Shown here: piece after piece, positions 8,011 through 58,870 of the stretch
Position numbering within the stretch: position 1 is the first letter of the stretch
Layout: each line of letters begins with the position of its first letter
Program-made: the position numbers and the translations under genes
From: Psammoneis japonica
Taxonomy: Eukaryota
Reading direction: 5' to 3'
NCBI GenBank assembly: GCA_008632985.1
Contig: QPGO01000015.1
Location: forward strand, 187,998-251,997
Length of the DNA stretch: 64,000 nucleotides
Notes under the pieces: model-generated
Told to the model about the DNA's origin: nothing
Database searches by the model: none
What the model saw: only the letters and a program-made list of their open reading frames with translations

Positions 8011-8099
8011 CTATCATCATCATCACTCATCCCTTCTATTCTGCCTGATTATTCTTCCGTTGCCTTCGGATTCCTGTGCCGCCAGATACTGAAATACCG

Positions 8100-10157: not shown

Positions 10158-10430
10158 GTTCAACCAGAGTCTTGCATGCCTCCTCTCTTATCCGCAATCT
10201 TAACATAGATGTCATAAAAGGTTCACTACTATGGTTGACATTTGAGTTCCGGCAGACGCTTAGCCTTTTGTAAGCCTCCTCTCTTATCGGCAGTAGCAAC
10301 ATAGATACCAAAGAAGGTTCACCACTATGGTCAGCGTTTGAGTTCTAGTAGACTCTTAGCCTTTAGCATGCCTCCTCTCTATCCGCAATTTTAACATAGA
10401 TGCAATCAAATTTGCACTACTTTGGTAAAG
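10146..10430 (+). repeat. About three diverged tandem copies of a ~92-bp unit spanning the stop codon and 3' UTR
   Basis: The blocks TTTGAGTTC...GCCTCCTCTCT.ATC.GCA...AACATAGAT...CAC.ACT.TGGT recur in order. Confidence 0.85.
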
Positions 10431-12011: not shown

Positions 12012-12246
12012 AGCGCCATCGACATATACGCATGATCTTCCTTTTTCGGTGGGAGCCGCATCTTATGGTGCAGTGTAGCAAGTCCACCTTGTGTTAGGCA
12101 TTCTGCTTCTAATGGCACCATAAGGATTTTCTTTTAAATAGCTTTCATCTTCTCTAGAGCCTAACGATGCATAAGTCGTCTTCTCTAGTGCTTTCCTGCA
12201 CTCAGAGACTGTATCCAAAGTACAGCACCTTGCTTCACAAAAAGGT

Positions 12247-12843: not shown

Positions 12844-13557
12844 TACTCACTTTCATCGTCGAAACACCAAGGGTACGACTGCAAAGCAGATATACTGTAA
12901 GTGCAACGCGTGGGAACAACAACGACAAAAACAACAGCAAACAGCGAAACAAATAATACTGTAAGATGCGGACGATGACGCGAGAAGCGCTCTTGCACAT
13001 GCGGACAGACGTCGGAGGGAGTTTTTGATTTTCAAAATTTATGTCCGTCCGGCGTTGCACGTGAAAAGCTACAAGCACCGACGGCGACCGACAGATGAAC
13101 AGGCACGATCCCGAACCAGAGCACCGCACACGCACACTGTTGAGCTGCTCTCTAGCTAGAGCTGCGTAGAGTCTCTGCCGATGCCAGCACCGTAGGCAGT
13201 GGGATGTCTTTCGGAGCGCAACCCTTGAAAGCTCATAAAAAGAGCTCGATCGCGAGTGCAGATTTTTGGAGCTTTGGATTTGGGGGATGACTCTCCTCGA
13301 TCTGCCTGGACAGCTGCTTGTGCTTTCCACAGGAATTCCGTCCTGCTCCTGTGGAAGCATGAACAAAAAAGATGCTCCAGATTCTGTCCAGGCACTGCTC
13401 TCTGTCTCTGCTCTAGCCCCACAGTGTGCTGGCTCTAGAGCCAGCAGTGGCTCTCTGCTCCTCTTGGGAGAGAGGGTTCATCGAAAATGACCAAAACCCC
13501 CAAAACGCACTGATTGACCAACTGATTTGGTCTCCAGCTAGAGCACAAATTCAGGCA

Positions 13558-16500: not shown

Positions 16501-17443
16501 CGTGAACATGGCGAAGTTGTTGGCCAGGCTTGCAGCTCACACTCCAAAGCATGCCCAGTCCCAGCAATCATGGACCAAGTCCATTGCCTCCATTCTTGCA
16601 GTGCCAACACCCGCACCCCACTGTGTGCAGTTTGTGTCGGCGCGCATTTGGACACATGTCGCCAGCTGCGCGATCACGAAAACTTCTTGCCCAAGGATGA
16701 CATGTCTCGCAGCCTCCACACCGGTGGTGCTGTGGCCTCACTGTGTGCCAAAGTCAACATGGACATCACATGCCTTGTCGGATGATGGAAATGAGATGCC
16801 ATGTTCCGACACTTGCGCGCACAAGCTCTCCCGTGTTGATTGCCGAGCTTTCAACAAAAGTTCCACACACTGTGGAAACTTCACTTTGTTGCCCAGTGCC
16901 AAAGTCCCGCCTGTCACACAAAATCTCATCAATCAAGCCGAGGCTCCTGCCACCCCAGCAAATCCTCGGCAAAACCCGCCCTCAGCTGCGCTTCTTGCCC
17001 CCACCCCTTTTTGCTCGTCGGCACTCCCAAGAGTGGTGGTGGGAGGCGGTTCTGGTGCACCAGGGAGTCACAGCAAAAACCCCAGCAAAGCACTGACACC
17101 ACCAGCCACTGCCTCCCAACTGTGGCAGGACGCAGCCCCCAGCAGCATTGGTGGCGAACAGCCATTGCAGCAGCAAAGTGGCAAGGACAGACGCGCCCAA
17201 CACCATCCGCAGCCTTGAACGGATCGGAGTGCAAACGGCATTCTCTGCCATTGCAACTCATCACCGCCTGTCGAGGCCACAGCAGCAGTTGTAATTTGAC
17301 CCACCACTCCCACCCAGGCCGCCTAGCAGGAGGCGGTTCCGGTGCTGGAGAGAGGGAGTCACGGCACAAACCCTGGTACAGTAAAGCGCTGATGCCACCA
17401 GCCACGTGCAGCCCCCAGCAGCGTTGCTTGGTGGCGAAGAGCC
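13558..17443 (+). mobile_element. Degenerate Ngaro/DIRS-group tyrosine-recombinase retrotransposon
   Basis: Split direct repeats A1 (13581-13690)...B1 (17042-17163) A2 (17186-17292) B2 (17329-17443). RT relic FLKADMADMIHKHCWTVLP, RNase H relic GTITNSDLKLSG, YR relic SLHTGGAVASLCAKVNMDITCLVG*WK*DAMFRHL. Confidence 0.85.
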
Positions 17444-37629: not shown

Positions 37630-38990
37630 GGGACTAAAGTAGGAAACGCATTCATTAACAAAAAAACGCTCTCATCATCGAATGGCAGTGTCAACGGGAA
37701 AAATGCAGTCCTCTTCGCGTGCGAAAAAGAGACGAGCAAACGGAGAGAAAAAGAGCAGAGAAGAAGGAAAGAAATTAATGATGCTGACCCAAAATAAAAT
37801 TTGCGGACCAGCCAACACTCGTCTTTGTGCCCCCACAAACATGTGTGGTGCCATGCTGCACCCAGGGTCGTGGCATTTTCAGGCACACCACTTCTCATGG
37901 CTTTTTGGTTGGCAAGAAAATTTGGTGAATGGGTTCACAGTTGTTGGTGGTGTGGATGCATTGCAGAAAAAGGGCTTTTGCCACAGCATGCCAAAAGGGG
38001 ACAAATTGTGCCACATGGGCAGAAGAAAAGCAGCGACTTCTTGGCCCACCCCTTTTCCAGCTGGGACCCCAAATGTCTTGGATGTCATTCTTTGAAAAAT
38101 GGCCACCAACAGAAAGTGGCAATGTGGAGTGTGTGACTTCATTCAAGCCCACACCTCCAACAAAGTGCCAGTGTGCAGCATGTCAGCTGCTGCGCTGCTG
38201 TGGTGGCAACAGGTTCAATGTCTCTTTGCTTTCTGCTCACCCCCTTCTCATGTCAAGTGCTGCCTGGCCAGCAAGTGCAAAATTTTTGCAGATGCCAAAG
38301 CTGCTGCTCTCCTTTTGAGGGCAAAAAAAATCGCGACAGCAAGAGAAAGCAACGCCGCGCCTCCAACAAAGTGCCAGTGTGCAGCATGTCAGCTGCTGCT
38401 GCCGCTGCTGTGGTGGCAACAGGCTCAATGTCTCTTTGCTTTCTGCTCACCCCCTTCTCATGTCAAGTGCTGTCTGGCCAGCAAGTGCAAAATTTTTGCA
38501 GATGCCAAAGCCGCTGCTCCTTTCAATGGCAAAAAAAATCGTGACAGCAAGAGAAAGCAGCGCTGCTCAAACACTCGTGCTGAATTTCCAGCTGGGGCTG
38601 GCTCTCCTGCTGCTGCAGTGACCCAAAAAAGCCAGTGGTGTGCAGGGAGAAATGAGCAGCAGGCATCCCAGCACTTCTTCTCTGTGTCAATGTGCGCCCT
38701 CGCTTTGCTGCCCTTCTCCCATCTTGGCTGCTCTGACTTTCAGCGCTGACAAAAATGAAAAAAGCAAAACAAAAAAAAAGCAGTGCCAGAGCTTTGCCAT
38801 GGCCACCCTTTGCTTTTTGCCATCACCAAGTTTTGCAAATGAGGCTGGCACAACTTGAACACGCAGCGCGTGCTGGCGGCACTTTGGCGGCCCGGAGCAC
38901 CCAGCGTACACATGCAAAAAAGAAAAAAGAGAGGCTTTGGTGCTTGGTGCCACCCGACCCACTTCAAGCAATGTCGTCGCAAATCCTGCG
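37630..38990. mobile_element. TpA-depleted repeat relic of unknown family
   Basis: Almost no TA between ~37810 and 38880; internal tandem duplication; no recognisable protein. Confidence 0.5.
38154..38560 (+). repeat. Two tandem copies of a ~206-bp unit
   Basis: CCTCCAACAAAGTGCCAGTGTGCAGCATGTCAGC... starts at 38154 and again at 38360. Confidence 0.95.
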
Positions 38991-39206
38991 CACAAATCAA
39001 AAAAGTCATAGTCATAGATTCTTCCTGTAAGAATGACTTCAAAATGCCCGAATGTCTCGGTCATAGTTCACAACCTAAATAATTGTAGTAGTTTCTCCGT
39101 CATGGTCATTGTGAAGAATGTCCCCAAAGACGAGGCACATTATTTTCGCCACAAAACCAAAGAACCATAAAGCGCACCACTCTCTGGTATCACGAAACTG
39201 AAGACC

Positions 39207-40163
39207 ATGAAAAGTACTCAGCGTCTAACAGCAACATCTCCTTCTGTCAGAGAGACTTCAAAGATAGATAAAGATGAAATCTTGGTTCGTCTCAAGGTCA
39301 TGCAATCACAGGAAGAATCAGCGACATATCGCTCCGCTGACTACCTTGGAGAAAACATGTTTTCGTCCAAATTTCGAGTAGACGAAGTTTGCCGTCTAAA
39401 AATGTGCCAATGGTGCTATCAGATTGTGAATCAGTGCAATCTTCAACGTGAAACTGTTGCTTTTGCCATGTCATACCTGGATCGATACCTGAGTACGCCA
39501 TCTGGAAGACACGTTTTATTTCAGGTTCGTCTATACCAACTTGCAGCTATGACTTCGCTTTATACTGCAATCAAGCTTCACGAGCCAATTGCCTTAGAGC
39601 CATCGGTGTTGGTAGATATAAGTCATGGTCACTACATGCTGGAAGAGATTGAAGAGATGGAGACCAGGATGCTCTTTTCGTTGAATTGGTTTGTGAACGA
39701 TCCTACCCCACAAGGCTTTGCAAGACTGATACTGTCACTTTTTCCAGACACGGTCGAGCTAGAATTGAAGGACGAGATTCATCGGAATACAATCTATCAG
39801 TTAGAACTTGCTGTTGCTCACTACGCCCTGTCGGGTACGAAGCCGTCGTCCATTGCTGTTGCTGCCGTTGCGAACGCCCTTGAAAGCGTTGAAAATGAAA
39901 AGATGAATTCAAGTATGAAGGAAGCGTTCTTGATCAGGCTCCAACAACAGTTCGAATTCGAGTTGAAGAGCCTGTCATATGTTAAAGCATCGCTAGGGCT
40001 GATTCTCCGCGGTGCTCAAAGTGATTTCGTTGACCAGACCAACTTTTGTCTATCTCCTCCTATCTCCAACCAAAGCGACATGTCTGGTTGTACTGGCGAG
40101 GCACTAGCCTCGAATACTTCAAGCCCTGTCTGTGTGCTGCGGGGTAGGCGAACACCCCAATGA
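39207..40163 (+). CDS. Cyclin (diatom-specific cyclin-like)
   Basis: Cyclin box CRLKMCQWCYQIV..LQRETVAFAMSYLDRYL..YQLAAMTSLYTAIKLHE..ME..ML..L.W..N.PTP. Confidence 0.93.
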   Translation: MKSTQRLTATSPSVRETSKIDKDEILVRLKVMQSQEESATYRSADYLGENMFSSKFRVDEVCRLKMCQWCYQIVNQCNLQRETVAFAMSYLDRYLSTPSGRHVLFQVRLYQLAAMTSLYTAIKLHEPIALEPSVLVDISHGHYMLEEIEEMETRMLFSLNWFVNDPTPQGFARLILSLFPDTVELELKDEIHRNTIYQLELAVAHYALSGTKPSSIAVAAVANALESVENEKMNSSMKEAFLIRLQQQFEFELKSLSYVKASLGLILRGAQSDFVDQTNFCLSPPISNQSDMSGCTGEALASNTSSPVCVLRGRRTPQ

Positions 40164-40435
40164 ATGATCTGTCATTCCCGGTTTCCTCAACATCGCTGTC
40201 AGATGAAAATCTGTACCTATTGCATAACTGATCATAAATCAAAGTCAATCAAATACAGTATTTCTACTGGGTCGTTTCAGATACACACATTCCAGCAACG
40301 ACAGAAAGCTCTGTCCGTTTTGCTGTTACGCACAAGCAAACGTTTCCATTCACAGTCCATACGGTAAACCGGCATGTCCTAATCTAATAAAGAGATCAAG
40401 GAACTTGAAAGCAACGCCGTTCGCGTTCTCGTCTT

Positions 40436-41098
40436 CTACTCGGCCCGAGATTTAGTTTTACTTGCCTTGAACTTTGGCCTCTTCGACCTCCTGGTGGTCA
40501 CTCGTTATGGTCCCTCTAGAGTAAGTTCCACGTCTTGAGTTTCCTCAGCTTGATTGGACAGAGTTTCTTCACCCGGGGGTTCATCAAAGGAATCTACAAT
40601 CTCCTCCAGGTGCGTTTCCATGTCTTGTTCAGGCGAAGGCTGCTGTGGTGGAGGAAGAGAGGTCTGAGACGATGCACTCTGCTCCGATTCACGAGACGTA
40701 TTTTCCGGTTGATCTGTCGACGACGAAGCCCCGACTTGTACTTTGAATACGGACAAATCTAAAACGACAAAAACAATAGAAATACCCATTCTTGTTAGCT
40801 CGGTCATGCTGATCAAGAATGAAGTCACTTTTCATCAGGATCTCACCTAGGGGGACCTTTGACTTTGGATCCAGCGCAAGAGCTACCAAATGCGGATGCT
40901 TTGAATTCTCCGATTGATATTTTCGTTTAAGCTGCTTCCTGCTGCGACTCTCAAAAAAGGACGCCATCGTCGCAAAGTCGGTACCAACCTGTCGCAATGC
41001 GTGGTAGAACAGTTTTGTCTCTTCTACAGTCCAGTGTTGCGGTGCCCGTCTAGAAACAAATGAATGATGAGAGGCTCCCACAACCGCAGTGTGTGATT
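40436..41098 (-). pseudogene. 5'-truncated duplicate of the BDP1-like gene
   Basis: Near-identical to 54882-55558 but breaks at 41098; premature stop near 40506. Confidence 0.85.
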
Positions 41099-44000
41099 GT
41101 TGCCGGCATTTTCTTATTCGTGATGACTTGATGTAATTCGACATGGTACTGTATGGAAACGTCGAAAATACCGTAGAGGTTTCGGTATGTGTCGTGGAGG
41201 ATTGCAATTATTGTTGATAAGGCAGTAGAAAGAAGAGAAGCAACTCCAAACTGCATTGTTGTTCGTTTCCAAGTACAGTGCTGTACTGCATGTGTGTCTG
41301 TGTGTACCGTATTACTCTAATAGTCTAATCTAGCATCCCCTTCGGTCGGCATTCTGATTAGTCTAACTTTTCGCGCCTCGTGATTTTCGCGTTGTTGAGT
41401 CAATCGCTGTGTCTCGGATAAAGAAACCAGCATGTTTTGGAACGCTTGTCTCTTACTTCAGTGGCACTTGGTTAATTGTTTAGAACATTGCGATGTCACT
41501 GAGATTGTGGTGGGTCACCAGCCCAATCACACTGGCAACCACTGTTTTCTGACACTCACCAGATGATTCAGCCTGGGGCAGCTTGCAATTTTGTCACTGG
41601 TGGTTTTGTGTGAAAGGATTTTTGACTGAACTTTGTCACTGCTTGTCAGCAGACTCTATCTGCTTACATTCCACCTGAGGCATCACTCTAAAAAGGACAT
41701 CCAGGTGATGCACTGGTGAGGCACTCGGAGCTCAGCTCAAGCTCCTTCCTCGAGCTGCAGCTGGTGGCGGTGTCACCTCACCCAGTTGAGTTAACCTGAC
41801 ACATTCAAGCCTTCACTTGGGGATGCCCAGACTGCTTGCAGAGCAAATGTCCACCACTCTGATTCTGTCAGTGCAAGAATCTGAAATTGCATCCAGCGCA
41901 AAGTTCGAGAGAGCTCCCCCCCAAGAGCTGGCTCCGCCAGCTGACTTTGAACAACATCTGCTGGTTCCGCCAGAAGACTGACCACCAGGTTTTCCAGTCT
42001 GCCCCTTGTGCCACCATCTTGGGCTCTGCACCACCCTGCAGCCCTTTTGAGACCCAAGAGAGCTCTTTGAGCTCACTTGTCCCAGCTGTAGATGACACGT
42101 TGGCCTGGTTCGACAGCATCGAGTGACCTGCTGGCAGCCATGGCTGGCCCAATCCTGTCAAGAGCCAGCCTCCACCGCAAGATCCTCTGCCTCCCCAGGA
42201 CAACAAGGGCACAGTCAGCTCTTCTGGGCTGCTCCCATGTGCCCACAATGATGATGAGGATGAGTCGTCTGATGATGAATCTGATGACGAGGGCTCCATG
42301 TGACCAGCTGACCGCTGTGCCATGCAATGCATGGCCACCATTTTTGCCATGGCACAATGCCCAAGACCAAGCCCAAGATCTTCAAGCCCAAGTCTCCCAA
42401 TGCAGGAGAAGTTGTCATTGCCAGCTCTGTGAAACAGGTGGCTTGGTCCAGGGGCAAGCCCAAGGCCAGCTGGTGTGGACTCAACCCCGCTGTTGCCACC
42501 ACTGCTCCCATGTCACACAATCAGCACCGCTCTTGCCATGTCCCAATCACACTCAAAGAAAAGCAAAAACTGTCAAACTGCTGGATTTTTTGCCAAGTTT
42601 GCATGCAAGGGAGATCTGTCAGTCTTTGAGAAGAGCAGAGCAGATCATTTGAAGGACTGCAGTGTGGATGCAGTCACTTGGCTCAACCCAAACAACTTGC
42701 TCCATCACAGGCACCCAACATGTGCTCCAAGTCCAGCACAGCTGAGCTGGTGGCTCCACAGCTTGCCAAGTGCAACAGCCGTGCAGCACTGCCAATGATG
42801 AGAACACAACAACTGTGTTCCTCACAAACTTGATTGAACTGGATTGGGTCACCTGGCTCAACTTGAAAATTGAAGACTCGGACCCATTCCCAAAAGTTTG
42901 AGAGAGCACTCATTGTCATTCTCCAAAGCCTGTCATCATGTGCTTCAAGGGTTCAATCCCCCACAAGCCCTCACAGTTCTTGGGACAAGACCTTCATGAG
43001 AGCTCCCAAAAAGGAGTTTGAGGTTGTCACAAAGGAGTTGGATGTCACTGGGTGGTGCAACAACAAATTGATGCTGACTCTTGTCAGCTCATGTTTGGAA
43101 GCTGAAGGCTTTGGCAAAAATGTTCAGCAGCTCAAGCACATGCTGCAAACTTTGAAAGAATGGCTTGACAACATGTCACTTGCAATTTCTTGCAAGTCCA
43201 AGTCTGACACTGAGCACATTGCCTTGCATGTTGATTCTTGATGCAAGCAACAAAGGAGACCCCAGTTGAGCAGCAAAAGTGCTGGTTGAGCTTTCAACCA
43301 ATCTCCCAGTTGGGCGGGCCTGCTGTGCAAGTCTGGCAAGTCAACAAATTTGTGAAGTGTTTTGGCTGACTCCAACGACAATGTTGAGTGACAACCTCAA
43401 TCTCTCACCTGCTGAAAAGGAGCCACTTAATTGGTGCTGTGGCCTTGGACACTTGACCTTTGAAAAGGTGCAATTTTTGACATGTGCTGGTGTTTTGGCC
43501 AAGTCTGAAAGTGTCTGTCATCTCCACAAAAGACTCTGTCAGCTTGATCATCCTTCTCTCTTTGCACTGCTTCCCACATCATCATTTGAGATCAAGAAGG
43601 AAGGAGCCTTGAAGAAAGAGCAGCTGCCCCCCCCTGAAAATGGCACCCACCACTGATCACTTTGTTTGTTCTGTGTGCTTTTTTGTCTGAAGCACACCTT
43701 TGGAAAAGAGGACACAAAGCATCAGCACTCAAGTGGTGCTGCTGTCTTTGTGGCCATGTGCCAGGTGCACAAATGTTTGACATTGAACTGACCTTAATTT
43801 CCATGAGACACTTCAAGCCACAAAATGGATTTTGAGGCCCATCATTGTGGCTTTGGCATCATTCCCCAAGCACATTTGAGCAAAATGACAGAAAGGCTCT
43901 CACTTTAGCTGATTTTTGCCAAGTCCACCTTGAATCTTTCACTGAAGTGTCAAGGTGCATCAGCACTGGAGCCCACCACCACAAAAACCAAGTGTTGCTG

Positions 44001-47000
44001 AATGTGCCACACATGCTGTCATGTCCATCACAAGGAGTGTGGATGCTGCCCTGTGGCCATTTGCCATCAACCACATGCTGTCCTGCTTTGCAGCACCATG
44101 CCTGGCCCTTCTGCTGATTGAGTCCCCAGGACATCTTTGCCAAGATGCAATTGCCAAGTGCTTTCAGGGCTGTCATGTTTTTGAGGTCACCCCCAGTTTG
44201 TGTTCTGGACAACAAAGTTGGCAATGGTGGCAGAAAGAAGTTGCCTGAATGGTGCAGCCCTGCACAAGCTGGCATGTCTGTGTGGGACTCAGCTCCAAGC
44301 ATGCATTGTCAGCCCCACCAGTCTTGAGTCTTGAAACTGGGGGCATCTCTCCACTGTTTCACACCATTTTTGACAATTTGTTTGCTGCTGTTCCTGTTGA
44401 GATCCAGACTCTCTCCCTGCCATTGGATCTCTAAAACAGACCACTTCCTTTGGAGACAGCACACATCAAGCAATGCATGCTGTGGACAAGGAAGACCAAG
44501 CAGAACAAGGAAGACCAAGCAGAAGTGAGTGCAAGTGTTGTGTTCTTGGGGAGTTGCAGATGCCACCACCCCACAGTTGCCGCTGGAGAACCTCTTTGAA
44601 TGGCTCCTTTGGCAAGCCAGGCTTCACCATCTCCACCCAGCCCACACCCAGTCCTCCTTTGGCATTGCCTGCACCCATGGAAAGAACCAACTCTCACCTT
44701 TGTTGGAGTCTTCTGCTGATCCTGCCATCTCAGACAATTTGCCTCAGAAGGAGAATGATTTGTGGGCCCTGCAATGTCTCCAAGTCCACAGAGGGAGCCT
44801 TCTGCCCCTCAAAATCTTTTCTCTCAACTCAGTCAAGAGAGGGAGGAGTTCCCTGCTGCACACCTCAACAGAGGGAGCAATGCCCCTCTCTCCCATTCTT
44901 CATGTCATTCAACCCAACAAAATCCCACTGCTCCCCAGCACCGTGGGTGCAATGGAACACAAGGAAGCAGACAAATCATGGCTCACTTTGCCAGTTTTCA
45001 TTGTGTCCACAAGTTTGATCATGGCTGCAACATTTCCATGCCCCCACTCCTTTGGCACTTGAGCCTTTGGTTGGCACCACACAAAATCAAGAATCTGCTG
45101 GGTGCCTTGTCATGAAAAGACAAAGCTGTGCAAAGCCCCAATTGCAAGAAGTGGCTTGACTTGGCCAAGATGGAGGTTGGCTGCACTGCCCTTGTCCATC
45201 AAGGAATGTGGTGGGCTGAAGCACCCACATCCAAAGCCAAACCAAGATTCTCCCCAACACTTGAGCATTTTGTTGCAAACTGTTGCCATCGGCTGAGATC
45301 AAGAAACTCAAGAAGGCTTGCTGTTGCTGTCATGGTGATCTTCAAGAAGAGGGAGTCTCCCCAATGCTTGTGCTCCTGTGGCTGCTGCATTGAGTGCTGT
45401 GCATTTGTTCCTTGTCTTGGTTGAGGAGTCTAATCTTGAGCTGGTCCACAGCACTGGCAGATTTTCAGCTTGGATTCATCAAGTCTGCCAAAGGTCTCAG
45501 AGTTTGTCTCAAGCTTGTCAAGAGTCTCTGTGAACTCTCCCACTCTGCCCCAAAATTGTTGTGTGAGCATTGTCCACGAGCCTTCCTTGACACCTGGAAT
45601 TTGTCCAGAGCAAGCATGATCTGCACCTCCTGCTCTGATCTATGATTGCCTTGTTGTGTGCATGCAGGTCAACAACTGTGGCATCATTGCAGTGCAAGAG
45701 CCCACCATCAATCAAGTGATCTTGCAGCTGTGGAGCAAAGGACTCAATCAAGAAAAAGACAATTGGTTTTTCATCAAGTTGTTGTGGGTTGATTGAGAAG
45801 ATCCTCTCAGCCACAGGAATGAAAGAGACTGCAGGCCCAATCTGCTTCCTGCTGCTGCTTGTCTGCAACATGTTTCTGTGCTTGACAAGAGCAGACCTTG
45901 TCAATTTAAAAAAAAAATTGCATGCTTGCCAATTGTTTCCACAGATCTTCAATTTACACAATTGTCAATTTTGTTTCTTGTCAGTTGTTGAGTTTGCCAG
46001 TTTTAAGTTGCCTGTGTGACTTGTTTTGTCATGCATTTTACAAACTTAAGTCTTTGTGCATTTTTTCTCTTTTCCTCACATTTGTGAGCTCTTTCCCTTT
46101 TGTTTTGCTCTGCTTCTGCCACATCTGTCCTTTTTTCCCACTGCACACCTCACAACCCATCCTCCAATCTAACACTTGGCAAATGGCAATGGCACGCCAT
46201 TGTCATGATCCACTCTGTCCCGGTTGGATGTCTGACAACAACAACCAGTGCACTCTCCACCGACATTTTCAAAGGTGTCCCCAGTGTTCTTCTTTCCTCC
46301 ATTTTGGCCTCAACAATGCATCTCCTTCTCCTGACCACTCCCTGAGCAACAGCGGTGCCTCCAGCTCTCTTGATGCATCAGGGCCTCTCCATCATTTCCT
46401 TGATTCAAGCACCAAAGGATCAATGTCCCTGTCTCTCCAGGATGGTGATTTGTCACACCTTTTTCCATTTCCTCCTGCCAGTGATCAATCCCAATGAACT
46501 GGGGGGGAGATTCCCCCTTTAATGACAACGTTGTTGATGCACATCACTCGCTGGATGTGGAAGAAGTTGGTGCTGGCTCTCTTGCTTGAGACCCACCCGA
46601 TGATCATTTCTGCTGTGACAATGTCCTTTTTCTGGAGGAGGAGTTCAATCTTCTCTCAGCACATCATTCTCACTCATCTTCTTCCCTCTCTGACAAGGAC
46701 AACATCAACAATCATGATGATGATGGGCTTGCACTGCTTTGATCCACTGGATTTGGAGGAGATGGAAGAAGCTCAACTGCTGGAACCTCCATGCATTTGT
46801 GAAACCAACACCACCAAAAAGCTTCACCCAGTGGAGGAAGAGCAGGTTAGGATGACAAAGAAGCATCATCTGTCTCACGGTTTGTGCAAGGATTTTCTTT
46901 CCTTGGCCAAATGCGCCAAGGAGAGTGGCTGTGAGCACAAGTCTTTGTCTGGCTCCACGGCCTTGTGATGCATGAAAACAAAGCATGCCAATTGTGTGGG

Positions 47001-49599
47001 CCTGGAGCACCCATTGTTTGCTCCACTGTGCATGTTGGACCCGTGTTCCCCCCAGCACATGTGTGCAGATTTTCCTTTCTGCATTGTGTGAGAAGGCTGT
47101 TCTGCAATCCCGAGGTTGTCCAGCAGCGTCAGTGGTCATGCCATAAAAAGTGCTGCCCCAAAACAAACAAGTGCATTGGCAACTCCCTTGACACTGGAGA
47201 CTGGTGGAAGCAAGCTTGGTGTGATCTCAAATGTTCCCTTGCTGATTTTGGCAATGGCTGCTCTTTTGGGTCTCACTTTGTTGGCCCAGTTGTGTGCTGT
47301 TTGACAATTCCACCCCATGTGACAACACAGGTCATCTGCGAGCACAACCCGTCCTTGCAACATTGGGCAATTTGAGTGATGAGAGTTGCTGCAGCCACTC
47401 CCTTGGCCAACACTTGGAATGGTGCTGCCACACCCAAAGACAAGCAATGAGTGCACCTGCTGCTGACCATCAGCCAAAGCTTGGACAGGAGACATGCATC
47501 AAGTTCCACCACAGCATGTTGTGGGAGACATTGACCAAGTTGCTTCAACTGTCAAAGCAAAAGACTGGTTTCCCAATTGTGATGCCATCTCTTGGCTTTG
47601 TCCATCTTCACTTTTGATTGTGCATGACAGTTGGCAATGCAAAAGGTCACAATGACATGGCTTGTCACTGCAACTCCCAGCATTCTGGCAACACATCTCA
47701 GACAAATGGGGGCTGTGACATGCTCAACACTTTGGTGACAATCCCTTGTTTGGCTGCAATTTGGTGGAAAAAGATGGCATCCAGGGGACAGCGGAGGCTG
47801 CCATGACAGCCATGGAGGAAAGGCACCACAGCAAAGTGACTGCAGCTTGTGAATGGTGCAAGGACATTTCACAGAACTTGGCTCATCCTGTGTTTTGGGA
47901 CCTCCCTCATGGTGGAGGACAGCATGGCACATTTGGCATGCTGCCCTGGGAACTGTTGCACGCCCTTTGCTTGAGCCTTTGCAAGCACCTCCTTCATGCC
48001 TTCTTCAACCTGTGCCAAGACCCAGAAAACAAGTTGTCATGGCATCATGACCTTTTGGTGATGAGGAATGCACAATGGATGACTGACTGTCTGGCACACT
48101 CAAGGAGCTTCCCAAGCCATTTGACAAAGCTGAGTTTGAGAGATGATTCAGAGTTGCCACACATGCATCCAGGAGGCAAAGTGATTGGAGTGAGCAAAGA
48201 ACTCCATTTGAGAATGGAGTTGCCAACCAGACTCATCCGTCTGGCCAAGAGCATGTCTTTGGAACTGGATGTGGCATTGTCCCTGTCATCAAACAAGGAA
48301 ATCCTTCTCACTCGGCTGCAGAAATGCATTCTCAAGCATCTGCAATTGTTTCAATTTGTTGTCGGCCCATTCTGAGAGTGTTGTTCTTGGTCTGGACTTT
48401 GTGCATCCAAGCTCCATGGCTTTTTGCACTTTCTGTTTTACACCCATCAGTGCGGCAATGCCAACAATTTTTTGGGGGGGTTTCTGTGAAGCTCTTCTTG
48501 GGACACTTCAGAAACAACCTGCTAAAAAACCAGTCATTGGCTAGATGGGATTGGCCTTGATGTGATGAATCATTGCTGTGAGGAGGACCTTGTTGCAAGG
48601 GAATCAGAAAAGGATTTGTTGGATGCAGGTTGGCTGCATGAAAAAGATGATCAGGCTCCTGCACCCCAGCCATCAAATCATGGATGCACAGACCCTGTCA
48701 CAGGATTCAAACCACTCAAATCTGCAATGACAGCCACTCGGGCCACAGACGCATCTGGCAACAATGCCGCATGGTCTGCAAAATGTGGAGATGAACAGCT
48801 GCAGAGACCTTCACATCCCTGTTTGTTCCAGGCAATTGTGGCAATGAGTGGGTGGCATCTTTGCTCCATCATGCAGAACATGATGATGCCTTCCCCGCTG
48901 AGCTTGTGAACTTTCACTTTGGACATGATGCTCCGGGCCCTGGGGATGATGAACATTGCATTTGCTCCAACAAGATGCCACCCAAACTTTCACTCACATT
49001 CCATGGAAATGAAGGAGTTGGCACAACTGGGCACCACAGTGAAGTGGGATGAGGAGCAAATGAGCTGTTCGGTCACAGCTCGTGTGTTGTGGGTGACCTT
49101 AGAAGATCAAATGATGGAACAAAAATCTGCAGTTTTTGCAATTCAATCACTTCAGAGCTTCACCCCCAACAAAGATTCTCTCTTGACCTTTTTCATGGGC
49201 AATGAAATGGAGTCAGAAATCAGAGTTGTTGATGCCAGGGACATGTTGTCTGCCACCTTTGTTCTTCCGTCAAACAAGGTTGCCACCATGAAAATGTGGG
49301 ACACAAGGTGAGGCACAAGAAGAGAAAGAGGAAATGAGTGTCAGATGCACAGAGCATGGAGCTCGGGCTGACAATGCAAATGACTGGCATTTTTGCGAAT
49401 CTTTGCACACAGACATTGTGATGCATGCTGAGGCAAAAAGGGAGATGGGCAGCAGGGGCGGCACAAAGGTGAGTGGAAACAGTGTGAGAAACAAGCCATT
49501 TGGAAACAGAAGAGATGCAAAACTCTGGTCAATCGTGTGCTGTTTTCTCTTGTTGCAGGCAATGCTTTGGCCACCAAATGGGAAAAATGAAAGAGAGGC

Positions 49600-49692
49600 T
49601 GCAGCCTGGAATGGACACTCTTGGAAAGAGCTTGTGTGAACAGAGATTGCAGCCTGGAATGGACACCCCTGGAAAGAGCTTGTGCAGAGAGT
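49600..49692 (+). repeat. Two copies of a ~48-bp tandem repeat
   Basis: TGCAGCCTGGAATGGACAC.C.TGGAAAGAGCTTGTG occurs twice. Confidence 0.9.
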
Positions 49693-50195
49693 GACAGCAA
49701 CCACAAGGGAGGACACCATCATGACCAAAACACCAGGACACAATCATGCATGGATTGCAGAGGACAAAGGGGAACTGGTGGGATGTGCAAGAGAAAAACA
49801 AGAGTGGGGAACAGGAACCAAAAGAGCATCATTCAGTGCCAAAACAAGATGACAAAACCAGTGCAAACAAGCAGCACACAGCCACTGCACAACAAGGTCA
49901 ACACGGCTGATGCACATCATTGTTGTCAGACCTGAACAAATGCGCACTTGTTGAGAAAGACACAATTGCAAATCACAGGTTTCATTTGTTGTTGTTTCCC
50001 ACTTGGAAGGTCAGTTTGAACATGAACAGAAACACAACTGTTGTTAGAATGAGCAGCAATGGGGAATTGTCAAGATTGCACACACAATGAGACTGATTTA
50101 TTTTGAGCATTAAATCCCACTTGGAAGGTTAAAACAAGGGTTGAAGACCCTTCACACACAATCAATTGGCACTTGTTAACCTTTCAACCACCACA

Positions 50196-50659
50196 GAGCA
50201 AATCTCCATAGGTGGAGATTAGCTCCACTTGAGGAATTGTGATGTGTCAGCAATTCACATGATGATGCAATGAGCACAGCACAAAAATGTCACATCATGC
50301 ACAATCTGCACAAAATGCACCACATGCACTTGCTCATTGTGAGCAAATCTCCAGTGGTGGAGATTTGCTCCAAGGGTGTGGCACTTTTTGCTCTGTTGCA
50401 ATGACAGCTCATCACAAACTGGGTTGTCACAGGTTGAGATGCAGTTCCTCTCTGTTCACAGATGAAGCATGCAAAAAACCCGGTGTCAAAAGTTGACATT
50501 GAACTTTCAAAATTGCAAGAATGGTCCCCCAGTGCTCTTTCTGCAAATGCTCGTTCAAAACAAAATTGTGCAAAAATGTTTGCCGTGCATGTCCAAAAAT
50601 GTTTCATTTTGCACATTTGTGATGCAAGCAAGCAAATGTCCATGGGTGGAGATTTGCTC
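50196..50659. repeat. Three copies of a 30-bp palindrome
   Basis: GAGCAAATCTCCA-N4-TGGAGATTTGCTC at 50196, 50341 (perfect) and 50630. Confidence 0.9.
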
Positions 50660-53429
50660 AAGTCCGGTGGTTGAAGGGTTAAGAAAATGGGGTTCTCATT
50701 GAGTGCACATGAATTCTGAACAAGAGCCACACTGTTTTCCAGATGCTGGCCCTTCAAAATGGGAATGCTCTTGTGCCTGTCTGCTGACACTTACCCTGAC
50801 ATGTCTGTTGCCATCAACCAGATCACACAGCCCAACTCACCACCAAAACAGGTGCACGGCACTGTGTCCAAGACTCTGATTTGACACCTCAAGAGGACTT
50901 GCAACCAGAAAATGCCTCTGTCTCCCATGGGTCTTCTTGAACTTGACCTTCAGTGGATGCTGATTTTGCCAGCCCATTTCTCAGTGAGCCAGACACAGAT
51001 CTCAGTCTGGTGTGGTTGCACACCAGATGCTTGGTCACTCCAAGTGGCTGCCAGTTGGTCTGGAATTCACAGCTTCAGACAGCCTCTGTGTTCTCAACTC
51101 TTGAAGCTGAATGTCAAGCTGCATCCTGCACTCTTTGGACTCTCTTCCCATTGAAGAACATGCTCCTCTCAGAGGTGGTTTCTGTCCTTTTTTGTCTCCC
51201 AAGATCTCAGGACCCCTCTGTCTGTGCCTGAGTTTTCAAAGACAACCAAAGAGCCTTTTCTGTCTCGCTGCCAATTGCCACACTGCCAACCACACCAAGC
51301 ACTTCTCACCAAGCCATGCTGGTTGTGGGCTCACTGCAACGAGTTTGTGGTGTGGTCAAGGTGGAGTTGGCTGGCCAACTTGAGCAACTGATTGAAGAAG
51401 GCTGCTTCTCATGTTTGTTGCATGCTGTGGCTTGAGTCATGATGCAAGAGCTGTGCTCTGAATTTGTGCCAATTGTGCAAGAAGCTTCTTCATTTTTGCA
51501 AATTTTCAGTCAGTTGCTGGAATCTGTGAGTGAGAGGGAGAGATGTGGGCCCATTCACACATTTGTCCAGCAACCAAGTCTGCCCATGTGTCTGCTGCAC
51601 ACTTCCGTTGTTGGCCAGAGCTCAAACCAAAATTTTTTTGCACCACATTGACCCCATCATTGAGTTGGTCACTGTGTCTTGGTTGAGAGACCAGCACATG
51701 CTGAAACACTCATTTCTTGCTTCAGCAGTGCTTGGCCAATTATTTGGAACATTGTTGTCACTGGTGAGATTGTGCTGGGTTGCCAGCGCAGTGTTGCTCG
51801 CTGCATGAGCAACAATTGTTTTTTTCTGACACTCACTGGATTCAGTCCACATGGCTGACAACTGGTGACTGGCAGTTTTGTGAAAGGATTTTTGACTGAA
51901 CTTTGTCGCTGTTTGTTGGCAGACTCAATCCACTTGTGTTCTGCCTGATGCATTGCACTGGAGCAGACATCCAGGTGATGTGCTGGCAAGGTGCTTGGAG
52001 CCCCCCCCCCCCACACAGACAGACAGACAGACACACACACACACAAGCTTCAACTCACGGTGGTGAGCAGCAAGGTGCCACATTAAAACGCACACCAGCA
52101 GTGCTCTCACATCTGGCATCCAGCATGTCCAGCATCGGCACACTGCAACTGGACTGCAGCAGGCTGTCTCTGGAGAGCAAAGGCATGCATCATGCAACAT
52201 GGTCGGCCCTGTGAGAGGATGGCTCAGCTGCCCCACACAGTCTTTGCTGTTTGGCGCACTGGTGATGATGGATTCTTCTGGATGTGTGATCTGGACAACT
52301 GTGCACCGGCAACCAAAGAGCAAAAAAATGTGCCTGAAAGAAACTTGAGCAGGAAAATTCAAAAGAAATGACCCTTGACCCACCATTTTGAAATCATGGT
52401 GCAGACTTTCATGTGCAACAGAAAAGGGGAAAAGAGACGCCCTTCTTTTTGACTCCCTGGGCTGGTTCAACAGCTGGGCATGACTGGCTTTGCCTCAACA
52501 ACCACCACATGGGGGGTTTCTCTGTGCAAGCAACTTCACTCAATCAGCCAGGCTTCTGTTTCTGTCTCACAACAAGGCACTGCTGTCTCCTGCCTTTTGG
52601 GTCACCTGTCATTCTCTTGACAATCTTTGTCATCTCCTTTTGTTGTTGCTGTTGCCTGGCAACTGATGTCTGTTGATGCAATGCAACAGCAGCTTCAGAC
52701 CCAGGTTCTTGAGGTTTGTCTCAAGAGTCACCACCACAATCTTGCTCTGGCAGGGCACCCTTGACTGAGACTCAAGCAAGTCATGTCAAGCGTGCCGCAA
52801 AAGAGCCCAACTTGCAAATTTTTCAATCCACTCAAAATGTGTTTGAAAGATTTGTTGCTGTTGTCATCACATGCTTGTTTTGTGCTCCACAAACCAGTGA
52901 CAGGGCTGACCTTGTTGAGGGCAAACAGCAACCTGCCAAGGCTGAAGCAATGCAGGCCTTGAACAAACCAGCATGGTTGCACCACACCAGCCAGAAAAGT
53001 CACAAACTTGCTGAGGGATCTTTTGTTTTTGCCTTTTTGCACTGTTGTTTGAAGACACAACACAAACTTGGCCACACAAGCAAGAGGCACAATCATGGAG
53101 TTTTTTCCACCAACATTTGAGCTTGAGAAGCTCTGCAGTTAAAAAAGGAGCCAGCACTGCTCTTAAAAAACAAGTTGAGGTGCCAAGCAGAAAGAAAGAC
53201 AAAGGTGGCTCTTGCAATGAGATGCCAGCCAACAACAATGAAGTTGGAAAAACAGGTTGTTTGAGCTGCCATCTTTCTTGATTCTTTTCTTTGGCAACAG
53301 GTTGAAGGTGGGCTGGGCTGGGAAATGCAAAATCCAAAAAAACAGCCCACAAAGAACTGCGCCACAGATTCACAAGAAAACGTCAAAATGATGCCATCAT
53401 GGTGGCCAGGGAGCTTTGCACCACCTGCG

Positions 53430-54603
53430 TTCCTGCAAGAGCAACTTCAAAATGCCCCAATGTCTTGGTCTTGGCTCCTCATGCCCTGAACAACAGCCGC
53501 AATTTCTCTGCAATGGTCACTGTGAGCAATGCCCCAAGAGGCACATGTCATTTTTGCTGCAAAATCAACAGAGCCACAAAAGTGCACCATCCAACTCTGT
53601 GGCATTACAAAATTGAAAACAATGAAATGCACCCAGCAGCATCTGACATTGACAATGTCAACATCTCCTCCTTGTGTCCAAGAGACTTCACAGACAAAGT
53701 TGAAACTTGGCTCTTCTCAATTTTGCACTGTCAAAGGAAGAATCAACAACATGTTGCTCTGCTGGCTGCTGAGTGACTTGGAGAAAACATCTTTTCTTCC
53801 AAAGTTTGAGCAGACAGAGCTTGTCATCTAAAAATGTGCCAGTGGTGCTGTCAGATTGCAGGTCAGTGCAATCTTCAATGTGGAGCTGTTGTGGTTGCTG
53901 AGTCACACTTGGATCAATGCCTGAGTGTGCCACCTGGCAGACCTCATGTTCTGTTTCAGGTTCATCTGTTCCAACTTTGTAACTCACTTCACACTGCAAT
54001 CAAGCTTCATGAGCTAATTGCCTTGCAGCCATTGGTGTTGGCAGAAATCAGTCTCATGGTCACTGCATGCTGGAGAGAAGAGATTGAAGAGATGGAGAAC
54101 AGCTCACGCCCTTTTCTCTCAATTGGTGTGCAAACAACCCTGCCCCACACGGCATTGCAAGCCTGATGCTGTCACTTTTCCCAGACACAGTCGAGCTGGA
54201 ATTGAAGGATGAGATTTGTTGGATCACGAACTGTCAGTCAGAGATTGCTCTTGCTCACTGCGCTCTGTCGGGTGCGAGGTCGTCGTCCATTGTGCTGTTG
54301 CTGCCATTGTGAACCCCCTTGAAAGCATTGAAAACGAAAACATGAATCAAGCACAAAGGAAGCGTTCTTACTCAGGCTCCAACAACAGCTCGAATTCGAG
54401 TTGAAGAGATGTCACATGTTAAAGCATTGCCAGTTGGGCTGATTCTCCACCGTGCTCAAAGTGATTTCGATCACCAGACCAACTTCTATTTATCTCCTCC
54501 AATCTCCAACCAATTCGACATGTCTGGTTGTATTGGCGAGGCACTATTATCGAACACTTCAAACCCAGTCTGTGTGATGCGGTGTAGGCGAACACCCCAA
54601 TGA
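53430..54603 (+). pseudogene. Hypermutated cyclin duplicate, including upstream sequence
   Basis: Collinear with 39020-40163; has frameshifts and systematic TA and CG changes. Confidence 0.93.
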
Positions 54604-54881
54604 ATGATCTGTCATTCCTGGTTCCTCTGGGAAGGCATGTATATCGCAGTCAAATGAAAATCTTTAGCTATAACTACTCACAAATCAAAGTCAATCAAAT
54701 ACAGTATTTCTACTGGGTCGTTTCAGATACACACATTCCAGCAACGACAGAAAGCTCTGTCCGTTTTGCTGTTACGCACAAGCAAACGTTTACAACACAG
54801 TCCATACGGTAAACCGGCATGTCCTAATCTACCAAAGTGATGAAGGAACTTGCAAACAACGCCGTTCGCCGTTCCCGTCTT

Positions 54882-56220
54882 CTACTTGGCCCGAAATTTA
54901 GTTTTACTTGCCTTGAACTTTGGCCTCTTCGACCTTCTGGTGTTCGTTCGTTTTGGTCCCTCTAGAGTAAGTTCAACGTCTTGAGTTTCCTCAGCTTGAT
55001 TGGACAGAGTTTCTTCACCCGGGGGTTCATCAAAGGAATCTACAATCTCCTCCAGGTGCGTTTCCATGTCTTGTCCAGGCGAAGGCTGCTGTGATGGAGG
55101 AAGAGAGGTCTGAGACGATGCAGTCTGAGACGATGCACTCTGCTCCAATTCACGAGACGTATTTTCCGGCTGATCTGTCGACGACGAAGCCCCGACTTGT
55201 ACTTTGAATACGGACAAATCTTAAACGACAAAGACAATAGAAATACCCATTCTTGTTAGCTCGGTCATGCTGATCAAGAATGGAGTCACTTTTCATCAGG
55301 ATCTCACCTAGGGGGACCTTTGACTTTGGATCCAGCGCAAGAGCTACCAAATGCGGATGCTTTGAATTCTCCGCTTGATATTTTCGTTTAAGCTGCTTCC
55401 TGCTGCGACTCTCAAAAAAGGACGCCATCGTCACAAAGTCGGTACCAACCTGTCGCAATGCGTGGTAGAACAGTTTTGTCTCTTCTACAGTCCAGTGTTG
55501 CGGTGCCCGTCTAGAAACAAAGGAATGATAAGAGGCACCCACAACCGCGGTGTGCGATTCTTCTTCCACCACATGCTGGAATTCCTCTTCCACTTCTTGA
55601 ACTGGGACCCGTGCACCCGGGACAACCATACTGGACTCCTGTAACACAATTTCTCCATTGATAACCTGCACAACCGGCCCACTTGAAGTTACTGCAGCTT
55701 CTGCTTGAGCTGCGTCTGGAACCGGCTCGGCGGCCGCGTTCTCCTTTTGCTTCTGACGTTTCTCCTTCGAACGGAACTTGCTACAAAAAGCCTGTAATGT
55801 GTTTTGACCAGGTAAGGCTGAGGGAACATCAGGCTCCGGAACGACAGACGGTTGCGCAACAGCAGTTCCATCCTCTTGTGCGACTTCTTCATCGTGCTCT
55901 CGTACCGGACGAGAGACACCAATGGCCACCCCGGTTGACGCCTTGCGCTTTTTCCCTCCGCTTCGCCGCGGCGCTTTCGCCAGTGAAGAATCATTTGTAA
56001 CATTAGAGCTTACATCTTGATCTTCCGAATCTGGAGGTTGTTCGTTTGATGTATCTTGATTATTCGAGAGTACTGATGCTTCCTCCTCAACGTCCTCGCT
56101 GGGAGGTGGAGGGGCAGCGGTGACCACAGAAGTGGGAGGATTTCTGGGTTTTCGTTGGTTGGCGGGGCGGAACGTCGGTCGACCTTTCCTGCTACTTTTG
56201 TTCGATCTGTTGCTAGACAT
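54882..56220 (-). CDS. BDP1: TFIIIB B'' subunit (SANT-like domain), intron 55220-55307
   Basis: GPVVQVINGEIVLQESS, WTVEETKLFYHALRQVGTDF..M..FF..RSRKQLKRKY..E. Confidence 0.85.
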
Positions 56221-56436
56221 TATAGCTCTCTACAGATCCTCAGCCTCAGTGCAGAATACCGGGCAGCATCATTGTGGATTTTGCGTTTTGCGGCGTCGGC
56301 TTGTCGGCTGAAGCACTGCGATGTGGCGGCCGGGCGGCCGGCCGGCATCGCGTGCGTCGTTGCGCGTGTTGCGGCGCGCTTCGCCACGATCTACTGTTTG
56401 CCGTCCCAGCTCCATGATGCCACGTGTAAAAATTAA

Positions 56437-58870
56437 CCCCCCGTTTTTAAGGCATTCGCAGAACGAAGGGGTGTAGGCACGACAATTTGATTTTTCAGGA
56501 TTTTCTACTGTACGAGAAACGCGTAGCGCGATACGCGCCTCGTCACCAAAAACAGGCGACGTGACGGTGGTGCGTTGTCGCAACGACAGCGATGACAGCG
56601 ACGTGCCCCAGAGTCTTTTGTCGTTGTGGACATTTGGTTCATTGAGTTTACGAACGTGTTCAGTCATGAAAGTCCCCGGGAGCAACCTCTGTTCGAAAGC
56701 AAAATGTCACACCAACAAGGAGCTCTGTTTTTCGACGATCGTTCAATGCACTCGATTGTCGAACGACTGTGAGTTCGTGCGGGGGACTTTCTTTGCATGT
56801 GTGTGTTCTCCACAGTGCAATTGATTAATGTGTCAAGTGCCTGTTGCAAAGTCGTCCTCTGTCAGCATCTGAAAATTGTCATCGTCATCGTCGGCGTCGA
56901 CGGCAATTTGTCGCGCAAATCGCAAAAAATGCACGAGACAGTCGTCTGGCTGACACTGCGCTGCTGTGCGCTCGTTGTGCACATGCCTCAACCAAACACC
57001 CACCTCGATCGACTAACAGCATGCAGATGCGAAGTTCAGCACCCTTTTTGGGGCCTAGAATGGGGGTGGACGTCAGTCACTTGCCAATCACTGAACATTG
57101 ACTCTCACACTTGCCCGTGTGACAAAGGTGCTCCACGAAAAGTCAGCTCTATTTTGAAATGCCAGATGCCATGAACAATACACACTGTACCTATTACATT
57201 CTCGCAAGACATCGGTTTAAAGAGCATGAGACCGATGATGCTCATATCTTGAGCATTTTATGGCTCTACTAGCGGGGGTCAAAGTCTAGCTAATTCTTCC
57301 AAAAAACTCGAGTCGAGTGGGTCATGCGGGATTCAAGACACGTGACTCACCGTACGTGAATTAGATGATAACATCAACACAAGACCTATTTCATGGCTAT
57401 ATGGAGTTACGACTAGCACAATGTGAACTGTAAAAAACGTCCCGAACACTCGTATCGCATTTTTTGTACATCGATATTTAACGATAACGGCTTTTAGCAA
57501 ATAATTAGGGCATTTTTACAGATGTAACCCATACAATTTGTAGTCAAAAATGGATACTTGTAACACAATTAGAAGATTTTTTAAATGTTTCCTATTCAAA
57601 TTCAGACTCAAATTTTGATATTACTTTTTCAACTCCGACTGCTTCATAATCAATAAACAAGTTCGGATGTTTTATTAAAAGACGTGGCCGGCGTTTCGGT
57701 CCATTTTGGCGGCTACGACATTTGAATTTACTTAACACCAGACATTTCTATAGGGCTTCAGTTCGTAGAGCAATAAATACGTAGACTGGTACAAATTCTA
57801 CAGCAGGAGTCATGTGCAGTCATTTTACATACCAATCATTCAGACATTTACTATATATTTAAATACAAAGTATTCAGTTTGTAATAGTCTATTTTGCACA
57901 TTGTGCTAGTCGTAGCCTCACATTCTATTCTCTAATCCATGGCTGGCCTCGTGACAACTATATTTGACCTTTTTCATGCTATGGATGGGCTAAGTAATCC
58001 ATAAAAACTCAACACAAGCAGCACACTTCTGTTTTCACATTTGACATTTGTGTCTTTGCGATCAATCTAGAGCAGATGCAAGCCAGGGAGGAGCTCCACT
58101 CACTGACATTTATGACCCCACAGAAAAACATCATCAGAACAATTTTGTCAACATTGTTTGACTGCTTTTTTGTTGAACCATGCGCCAGCATCATTCTTCA
58201 TTTTCACTCCAATCCGCCCGACTCTCTCCTGTTCAAGAACACTTGGCTGAATGCATTGCAGCTGCTTTGTCAAAGTCTCACAAATGTTCGTCTGTTCAAT
58301 GCCGTTGGTCAAATGGGATAGATGATGTGACAACGACGTTGGATTCGTTCATGTGCTCATGCTGGGAAAGACAACAAGAATTGGCTGCGGCGGCAAGAAA
58401 GTTGAGTGAGACAACAAGTGGTGAGCCTTGGACACATTGGCAACACAATTTTGATTTTAAATTTACTTGCCTTTTTACAAACTCGGACTTTAACACATCG
58501 GGTTCCGAAAATCCGGCAAATGGTGAGTTGGTGCGTCCTCTGCATGCAACATGGCGTCACGACAAAGCGAAGCGGTGTGTTTCAACATTTCTCGCCAAAC
58601 TGTGCGTCTCCGAATGGATGATTACAACGGTACATCGATGAGGGTCTAATAGAGCTTCTATTGTAATGGTCCAAAAAACGACGAATGTTTAGACACCTTA
58701 TCTACCGCGTCAATGTCATCGTCGGCTCCGGCGGATTTTTGACAATTTCTCCGTGTTGTCACCACGGGGATGGTCTGTACGCTCAACCGGAGCGCGCCGG
58801 CCATGTCAGCTTGAAGTTACTTAAGGCCTGGGTCTCATAACTGTATGGCACGACTCGTGAAATGCGGCCG
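56437..58870. mobile_element. Mosaic repeat region: TpA-depleted patches (~56655-57150 and ~58010-58620) around an AT-rich unconverted segment
   Basis: Begins TTAA|CCCCCCG, like a piggyBac end. No credible host ORF. Confidence 0.4.

Follow-up and report, generated by a model that had tools for sequence, protein, structure and literature searches.

The repeat-induced point mutation (RIP) of fungi changes C:G to T:A, mostly as CpA>TpA, and thereby creates TpA; it hits both copies of a duplication. Hyper-editing of repeat RNA by ADAR-type enzymes changes A to I, with a preference for U on the 5' side and for G on the 3' side of the edited base. Here, these and related systems are compared with a stretch of 64,000 nucleotides from Psammoneis japonica (GenBank assembly GCA_008632985.1, contig QPGO01000015.1, positions 187,998 to 251,997 of the forward strand; hereafter the window, with all positions counted from its first letter). 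The comparison centers on a patch of about 0.6 kb that lies in a multi-copy repeat and is nearly devoid of the dinucleotide TA at a normal CpG level, and on three larger TA-free zones (zones 1 to 3, Table 1).

TpA-specific hypermutation of integrated viral and other foreign DNA has been described in Bigelowiella natans (Mettrop et al., bioRxiv 10.64898/2026.01.13.699255). According to the main text of this preprint, two integrated viral regions mutated ~1000-fold above the rest of the genome in mutation-accumulation lines. The changes were A>G or T>C in 210 of 211 and 20 of 20 cases and always fell on TpA, the rate of TpA>TpG/CpA was about 6e-7 per site per generation, and G:C>A:T was almost absent. 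In the genome, 124 clusters poor in TpA and rich in CpA+TpG were counted, and the agent was proposed to be an ADAT2-like deaminase (10.64898/2026.01.13.699255). To date, natural A:T>G:C conversion at one dinucleotide in chosen nuclear stretches is known from a single report, this 2026 chlorarachniophyte preprint, and no report of TpA hypermutation in diatoms was found within the literature library searched.

The window resembles B. natans, as described there, in showing TpA>TpG/CpA transitions on both strands that are confined to regions, in its long-term TpA depletion with an excess of CpA+TpG, and in having transposon-type genes among the targets; the patch is alike also in showing no accompanying C>T. 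A:T>G:C change at TpA is seen directly in the polarised copy B of a segmental duplication (32 of 38 sites), and in the patch through its context signature and two to three sites. TpA falls to observed/expected (o/e) ratios of 0.01-0.05 in the zones and 0.11 in the patch, where CA+TG rises to 1.53, and the targets are foreign or mobile, with the relic of a Cre-fold gene in zone 1, a pair of long terminal repeats (LTRs) in zone 3 and a repeat around the patch. G:C>A:T change is absent from the patch and largely absent from the edge of zone 3; the three zones have lost 60-87% of their CpG relative to an o/e of 1, which we attribute to a second process.

The differences from the chlorarachniophyte case are as follows. 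The host lineage is a stramenopile here and a rhizarian there, and erasure is essentially complete over 1-13 kb, unlike what the preprint's main text describes. The patch is shorter than the B. natans clusters, which comprise at least three 1-kb windows (10.64898/2026.01.13.699255). The large targets have also lost CpG, which that main text never mentions, and a 3'-pyrimidine preference with YTAR survivors (Y, pyrimidine; R, purine) is found here, whereas the words 'context' and 'flanking' do not occur in it. Unlike the targets it describes, those in the window include a 0.6-kb patch and the pseudogene of a host gene at a zone edge.

The remaining systems fit less of the pattern. RIP shares the regional, transition-only ruin of mobile elements and the ability to leak into neighbouring DNA, but TpA is destroyed in the window, so that the direction is opposite; moreover, of the two 2.1-kb copies only B is mutated, A being untouched and matching B at 96-98% identity over its right-hand 900 bp; fungal RIP was therefore rejected. 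ADAR-type editing likewise prefers an A after U/T and targets repeats. It acts on RNA, however, and would need reverse transcription for heritability, whereas here both strands, two LTRs independently of each other and a flanking host pseudogene were changed in place, and the 3' preference is for a pyrimidine instead of G. Methylation-driven CpG decay in silenced transposons matches the zones in the change of CG to TG/CA and in the G/C-flanked survivors, but does not account for the loss of TA; the CpG depletion that marks it is present in the zones and absent from the patch (43 CG in 602 bp).

TpA loss in the patch and in polarised sequence

The sequence-only reading had pointed to a stretch of about 500 bp with abundant CpG and only three TA, in the contexts TTAA, CTAA and CTAG. 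The count was reproduced: positions 56655-57150 (496 bp) contain TA at 56826 (TTAA), 57014 (CTAA) and 57056 (CTAG) only (o/e 0.10), next to 47 CA (o/e 1.51) and 48 TG (o/e 1.56), and the CG-rich strings that had been quoted are present. The 32 CG (o/e 1.00) bear out the abundance of CpG as a normal level, not as an excess, and the same holds for the whole patch (o/e about 1.0-1.1 over the two intervals). In sequence not belonging to the TA-free zones, the share of TA among all TA+CA+TG steps is 0.224; at this share, the probability of three or fewer TA among the 98 such steps of 56655-57150 is 6.6e-8. A maximal-segment scan placed the full extent of the TA-erased segment at the patch of Table 1 (602 bp, 4 TA and 43 CG), which includes all but the final 5 bases of the initial interval. 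In what remains as normal sequence, no segment scored above 7.02, and when normal sequence was simulated 300 times with a second-order Markov model, the scores had a mean of 7.48, a standard deviation of 1.13 and a maximum of 11.35, with none of the 300 reaching 15. As the patch scores 16.1, its TA depletion is real and not a product of chance. Self-comparison of the window, in ordinary or purine/pyrimidine letters, yielded no relative of the patch.

The direction of change was read from the segmental duplication, whose copies A and B are 2.1 kb long and 84% identical overall, with the identity being 96-98% at the right and falling to 71-77% at the left. Copy A holds an intact cyclin gene and only a 3' fragment of a Bdp1-like gene, while in copy B the Bdp1-like gene is complete and the cyclin broken and hypermutated, leaving one working gene per copy. 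Both copies adjoin TA-free DNA on their left, and copy B begins in zone 3 and reaches into the Bdp1-like gene. Between 53430 and 54350 of copy B, 18 of the 38 TA of copy A have become TG, 14 have become CA and 1 is kept; of its 38 CG, 14 have become TG, 13 have become CA and 6 are kept. In total, 32 of 38 TA and 27 of 38 CG were thus turned into TG or CA in the mutated part, and these site fates identify the zones as the product of TA>TG/CA and CG>TG/CA change in place, which spread into a duplicated host gene.

The composition of the zones agrees with this spectrum. In 500-bp bins, they have a CA+TG o/e of about 1.5-1.96, and the density of pyrimidine-purine steps is nearly the same inside (about 234 per kb) and outside (240 per kb), as expected from pure transitions. 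In zone 3, two direct repeats (41390-41733 and 51655-52003) are 70% identical in ordinary and 90% in purine/pyrimidine letters. Aligned as an LTR pair over 336 bases, they show 100 differences, of which 79 are transitions, and they include 22 sites with CA in one and TG in the other, which fits two LTRs hit independently after insertion. The outer ~100 bp of the left LTR (41390-41485) retain CG and TA while the right LTR is converted, so the boundary of zone 3 lies inside the element and not at its end.

A flanking-base rule emerged from the polarised sites. RTAR was converted to CA six times and to TG once, and YTAY to TG eight times and to CA twice (Fisher p 0.015), such that the edited A prefers a pyrimidine on its 3' side (TAY, or RTA when the opposite strand is read) and the YTAR sites TTAA, CTAA, TTAG and CTAG survive longest. 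A rule based on a purine before the T was rejected, as the direction data point to the base 3' of the edited A; the base attacked chemically could be either this A or its paired T, both being compatible with the data. Among the TA surviving in the three zones, 30 of 48 are YTAR (14 TTAA, 8 CTAA, 6 TTAG and 2 CTAG), compared with about 19% of TA in normal sequence, and the assignment of the survivors in the patch to a resistant class, made from their letters, was thereby upheld. Counted on both strands, the zone survivors comprise 53 TAA, 26 TAG, 13 TAC and 6 TAT, with 813, 892, 1057 and 978 in normal DNA.

The same rule is visible in the patch, where the survivor contexts on both strands are TAA 4, TAG 3, TAC 1 and TAT 0, or TAR in 7 of 8 cases. 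At T[A/G]Y, TA occurs once and TG 72 times (expected TA share 0.39, p 6e-15), and at T[A/G]R, TA occurs 7 times and TG 43 times (expected share 0.35, p 7e-4); TGY accounts for 72 of 115 TG contexts (0.626; normal sequence 0.501; p 0.009). With respect to context, the patch shows the signature of the polarised TpA process.

The extent to which TpA and CpG are lost together was followed from target to target. At the zone 3 edge in copy B, an interval that was picked after the data had been seen, all 8 TA are converted, while of 15 CG 9 are kept, 5 converted and 1 changed otherwise (Fisher p 0.007), which shows the two decays uncoupled. The o/e pairs of the five targets in Table 1, from zone 3 with the lowest CpG to the patch at a CpG o/e of 1.10, have no fixed ratio, and together with the zone 3 edge they indicate that TA loss runs ahead of CG loss and goes beyond it. 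The claim that TpA conversion is faster than CpG decay or independent of it has therefore held: it is supported by the signature of the patch at normal CpG, the zone 3 edge, the variable ratios and the precedent of B. natans, which also support the view that TpA conversion is not a by-product of CpG decay.

Copies of the repeat and explanations of the patch

The patch had been taken for part of a repeat, and contig word depth agrees. In bins along the repeat, the summed depth is 1200-3560, or 20-55x that of the flanking single-copy contigs (about 58-70), a summed contig depth not being a strict copy number; at 56935 it is 754. Single-copy Logan contigs (run X1) end at 56430 and restart at 58812. 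The sequence-only reading had also proposed that the changes be polarised against other genomic copies, for which loose ends and joints of contigs offered few sites only, at 56997-57015, 57155-57168 and 58285-58303. At 57160-57168, other copies read ATACC twice and this copy ATGCC; at 57155, this copy has TG and others CA; at about 56997, it has CA and others TG; and near 58285-58303, some copies have TA, and this copy and others TG. Repeat copies thus differ, in both directions, at just the kind of site that this process makes.

We consider it probable that the patch is the footprint of in-place TpA hypermutation on one repeat copy, and that the CpG loss seen elsewhere stems from a second, separate process. 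A TpA-directed A:T>G:C hypermutation would act on DNA in place and would be the same process that stripped TA from the three transposon-derived zones, turning 5'-TA-3' into TG or CA depending on the strand hit, with a strong preference for TA in which a pyrimidine follows the edited A. An enzyme, e.g. an adenine deaminase acting on DNA, presumably drives the TpA change. The CpG loss in the large zones would be a separate process, most simply the deamination of methylated cytosine in silenced elements, and methylation is the likely driver of this arm; it would lag TpA loss or reach less far. In the patch, the CpG process would have been inactive, because the hit is recent or because promoter-proximal DNA is unmethylated. 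The sequence-only reading had suggested an early-stage target, and the patch could equally be a recent hit or an old one whose CpGs were never methylated; the latter is possible as the patch lies 315-916 bp upstream of the start codon of the Bdp1-like gene, a gene of essential type.

Several observations weigh against this reading. At 57014, this copy has retained CTAA where others have CTGA. There and at some further visible sites, e.g. at 57239-57269, the other copies are the TA-poorer ones, which indicates that the repeat family is partly converted as a whole, and part of the TA poverty of the patch may go back to a source copy that had been edited before. Among the top-supported differences of other copies that were listed, none lies inside 56450-57150. 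TA loss in the body of the patch is read from composition and context, not from an aligned ancestor, and it is accordingly put forward as likely that the process removed TA in the lineage of this very copy. Both flanks in the same repeat copy, 57146-57397 and 56450-56543, have normal TA, so that a hit would need sharp bounds. A single sample, possibly the assembly's own, supplied all of the read evidence; the sequencing runs found amount to three entries of one sample and one study, with no RNA run among them.

The first alternative is that the segment was always TA-poor by function, origin or selection, with no hypermutation in this lineage. TA is under-represented in general (o/e 0.46 across the window and about 0.6 in its normal parts), other copies are TA-poor at 56997-57015 too, and just a handful of sites can be compared with them, all of which is in line with a native composition. 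This composition would, however, have to reproduce the context dependence of the polarised process, as the depletion in the patch is ~35-fold for TAY and ~2.5-fold for TAR with TGY in excess; it would also have to explain TAC in other copies opposite TGC in this one at the right edge, and the CA/TG discordance among copies. No normal segment and none of the simulations came near the score of the patch, and the repeat contains no ORF (open reading frame) with a Pfam match at curated level and no Rfam family at gathering score to account for constraint. We regard a native composition as unlikely.

A single coupled process, in which an enzyme of dual specificity or a chromatin state turns both TA and CG into TG/CA and the patch shows the faster arm, appears distinctly unlikely. 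TA and CG losses do coincide, in each of the three large zones as well as where copy B is mutated, and both converge on TG/CA; ADAT2-type deaminases may act on A and C in DNA, according to reports cited in the main text of 10.64898/2026.01.13.699255. Against coupling stand the near-complete loss of TA at undiminished CpG in the patch and the changing ratio of the two decays, including the retention of 9 of 15 CG at the fully TA-converted zone 3 edge, as well as the different sequence contexts, with A being edited after T and C before G; moreover, the hypermutable regions of B. natans gained almost no G:C>A:T in the data of the preprint's main text (10.64898/2026.01.13.699255).

That TA and CG were misread as TG/CA in base-calling or polishing, owing to modified bases in silenced DNA, is hardly credible: the library type of the runs is not on record and the runs are possibly the assembly's own data, but independently built Logan contigs reproduce zone 3 (run X1; one of 4787 bp with one other letter and one of 3958 bp with none), copy B carries indels and transversions as well, the gene relic in zone 1 shows matching amino-acid changes against 24 relatives, and the same signature occurs in another organism with Illumina data, as the main text of 10.64898/2026.01.13.699255 has it.

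Other features of the window

The coordinates of the main features are compiled in Table 1. Zone 1 contains an ORF for which a HMMER search of a representative library returned 534 relatives at E<=1e-3 (best 6e-37), whereas a word-indexed protein search found none. For one of these relatives, a structure was predicted from an alignment of 30 sequences (pLDDT 80.5), and Foldseek matched it to Cre and further tyrosine recombinases (E 1.6e-5, probability 1.0); a profile search against PDB sequences and NCBIfam gave no match, and neither did Pfam on 13 relatives that align over the domain. Compared with 24 relatives, the ORF lacks 10 of 11 consensus Arg, five of which are His, one Cys and one Gln; it has no Tyr at all, and Cys and His amount to 7.4% and 8.4% of its residues, versus 2.0% and 3.9% in the relatives. 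An OTT_1508-like deaminase, suggested by a Pfam match of 16.3 bits (E 0.0097, cut-off 27), was rejected for this ORF, given that its relatives have no Pfam match and the model of a relative matches Cre. The element has direct repeats of ~110 bp (13581-13689 and 17186-17295; 80% identity, 95% in purine/pyrimidine letters), and we take it to be, probably, a Crypton-like mobile element.

Zone 2 contains a tandem duplication of ~210 bp (38149-38358 and 38355-38566), with 93% identity in ordinary and 97% in purine/pyrimidine letters, and the element of zone 3 gave a weak gag_pre-integrs match (E 0.026). Among the 243 CpG that survive in the zones, those flanked by G/C are enriched (CCGC 29, GCGC 27) and those flanked by A/T depleted (ACGA 7, GCGT 8). 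Of 140 ORFs from the zones and the repeat, 139 had no Pfam match at E<=0.005, and only weak matches were seen. At the partly converted edge of copy B (54350-54700), 5 of 5 TA conversions are to CA and none to TG; the numbers are small, and they hint at editing coordinated on one strand there.

Table 1. Features of the 64-kb window of contig QPGO01000015.1, with the observed/expected (o/e) ratios of TA and CG.
Feature	Position	Strand	TA o/e	CG o/e	Basis or remark
TA-erased, CpG-retaining patch, full extent	56544-57145		0.11	1.10	maximal-segment scan, score 16.1
Multi-copy, apparently non-coding repeat with the patch	56430-58840				contig word depth; ends approximate
Second small TA-erased patch, same repeat copy	58113-58453		0.04	0.59	score 15.0; partial CpG loss
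Nested TA-rich element, 27-nt terminal inverted repeats	57398-57922		0.93		525 bp
Zone 1, TA-free	13257-17291		0.04	0.39	
Relic of tyrosine-recombinase (Cre-fold) gene in zone 1	16174-16782	+			relatives and fold match
Zone 2, TA-free, adjoins copy A	37802-39008		0.01	0.36	1 TA in 1207 bp
Zone 3, TA-free and CpG-poor	41486-54355		0.05	0.13	LTR-flanked element and adjoining DNA
Zone 3 edge in copy B	54190-54419				TA all converted, most CG survive
Copy A of segmental duplication, intact cyclin ORF	39022-41101				self-comparison, Pfam
Copy B of segmental duplication, left part a hypermutated cyclin pseudogene	53430-55562	+			self-comparison
Bdp1-like (TFIIIB B'') gene	55150-56229	-			Pfam Myb_DNA-bind_7, E 5.4e-22

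The 2.4-kb repeat is probably a non-autonomous mobile element. None of its seven ORFs of at least 75 amino acids has a Pfam match at curated level, and no match was obtained with Rfam at gathering level, the SIB_RNA match at 58041-58170 being sub-threshold (21.4 bits, 56 required); a search for tRNAs and a search for terminal repeats of the repeat found none. Of the patterns derived from it, two gave 0 matches in metagenome contigs and one gave 0 in viral contigs. The nested TA-rich element, with inverted repeats at 57399-57425 and 57897-57923 (85% complementary), is missing from several other repeat copies, in which contigs join 57397/8 to 57919-57927, and either postdates the hypermutation or is not among its targets; some other copies join about 56450 straight to about 56990. 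The second TA-erased patch holds 1 TA and 10 CG, with a CA+TG o/e of 1.76. At 58394-58459, the summed contig depth is 5000-12700, compared with about 65 for single-copy sequence, which is far above the rest of the repeat.

The window is gene-dense with long open exons, and its Pfam matches comprise an amino-acid transporter, an ATP-citrate lyase, an EF-2-like GTPase, an HSA-domain protein, a cytochrome-b5 desaturase, the cyclin and the Bdp1-like protein. For the citrate-lyase ORF, the closest relatives with a name come from Bacillariaceae sp. (84%), Ectocarpus (78%) and Phytophthora (74%), and hits without a name go up to 88%, which points to a stramenopile and most likely to a diatom.

Possible meaning for genome defence

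The observations in this window would place the same kind of TpA process as in B. natans in a stramenopile, and thus in another lineage, with a new flanking-base rule. To the chlorarachniophyte case, the window adds the order in which sites are hit (TAY first, YTAR last), internal evidence on direction from a pair of paralogues, and the separability of TpA loss and CpG decay, which speaks for an activity dedicated to adenine or thymine, not for a side effect of methylation. Transposons that are hit lose all their Tyr codons and most of their Arg codons, and escape domain searches.

It is conceivable, and we advance it as a tentative proposal, that diatom-like stramenopiles run a genome defence based on enzyme-driven TpA editing with TAY/RTA preference, acting in sharply bounded tracts down to the size of a few nucleosomes, independently of cytosine methylation, and reaching host genes and promoter-proximal DNA. 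If this is true, TpA editing would be a defence of old standing that is common to the stramenopile-alveolate-rhizarian (SAR) supergroup, or one that evolved repeatedly, and it could add to the scarcity of TpA in these genomes.

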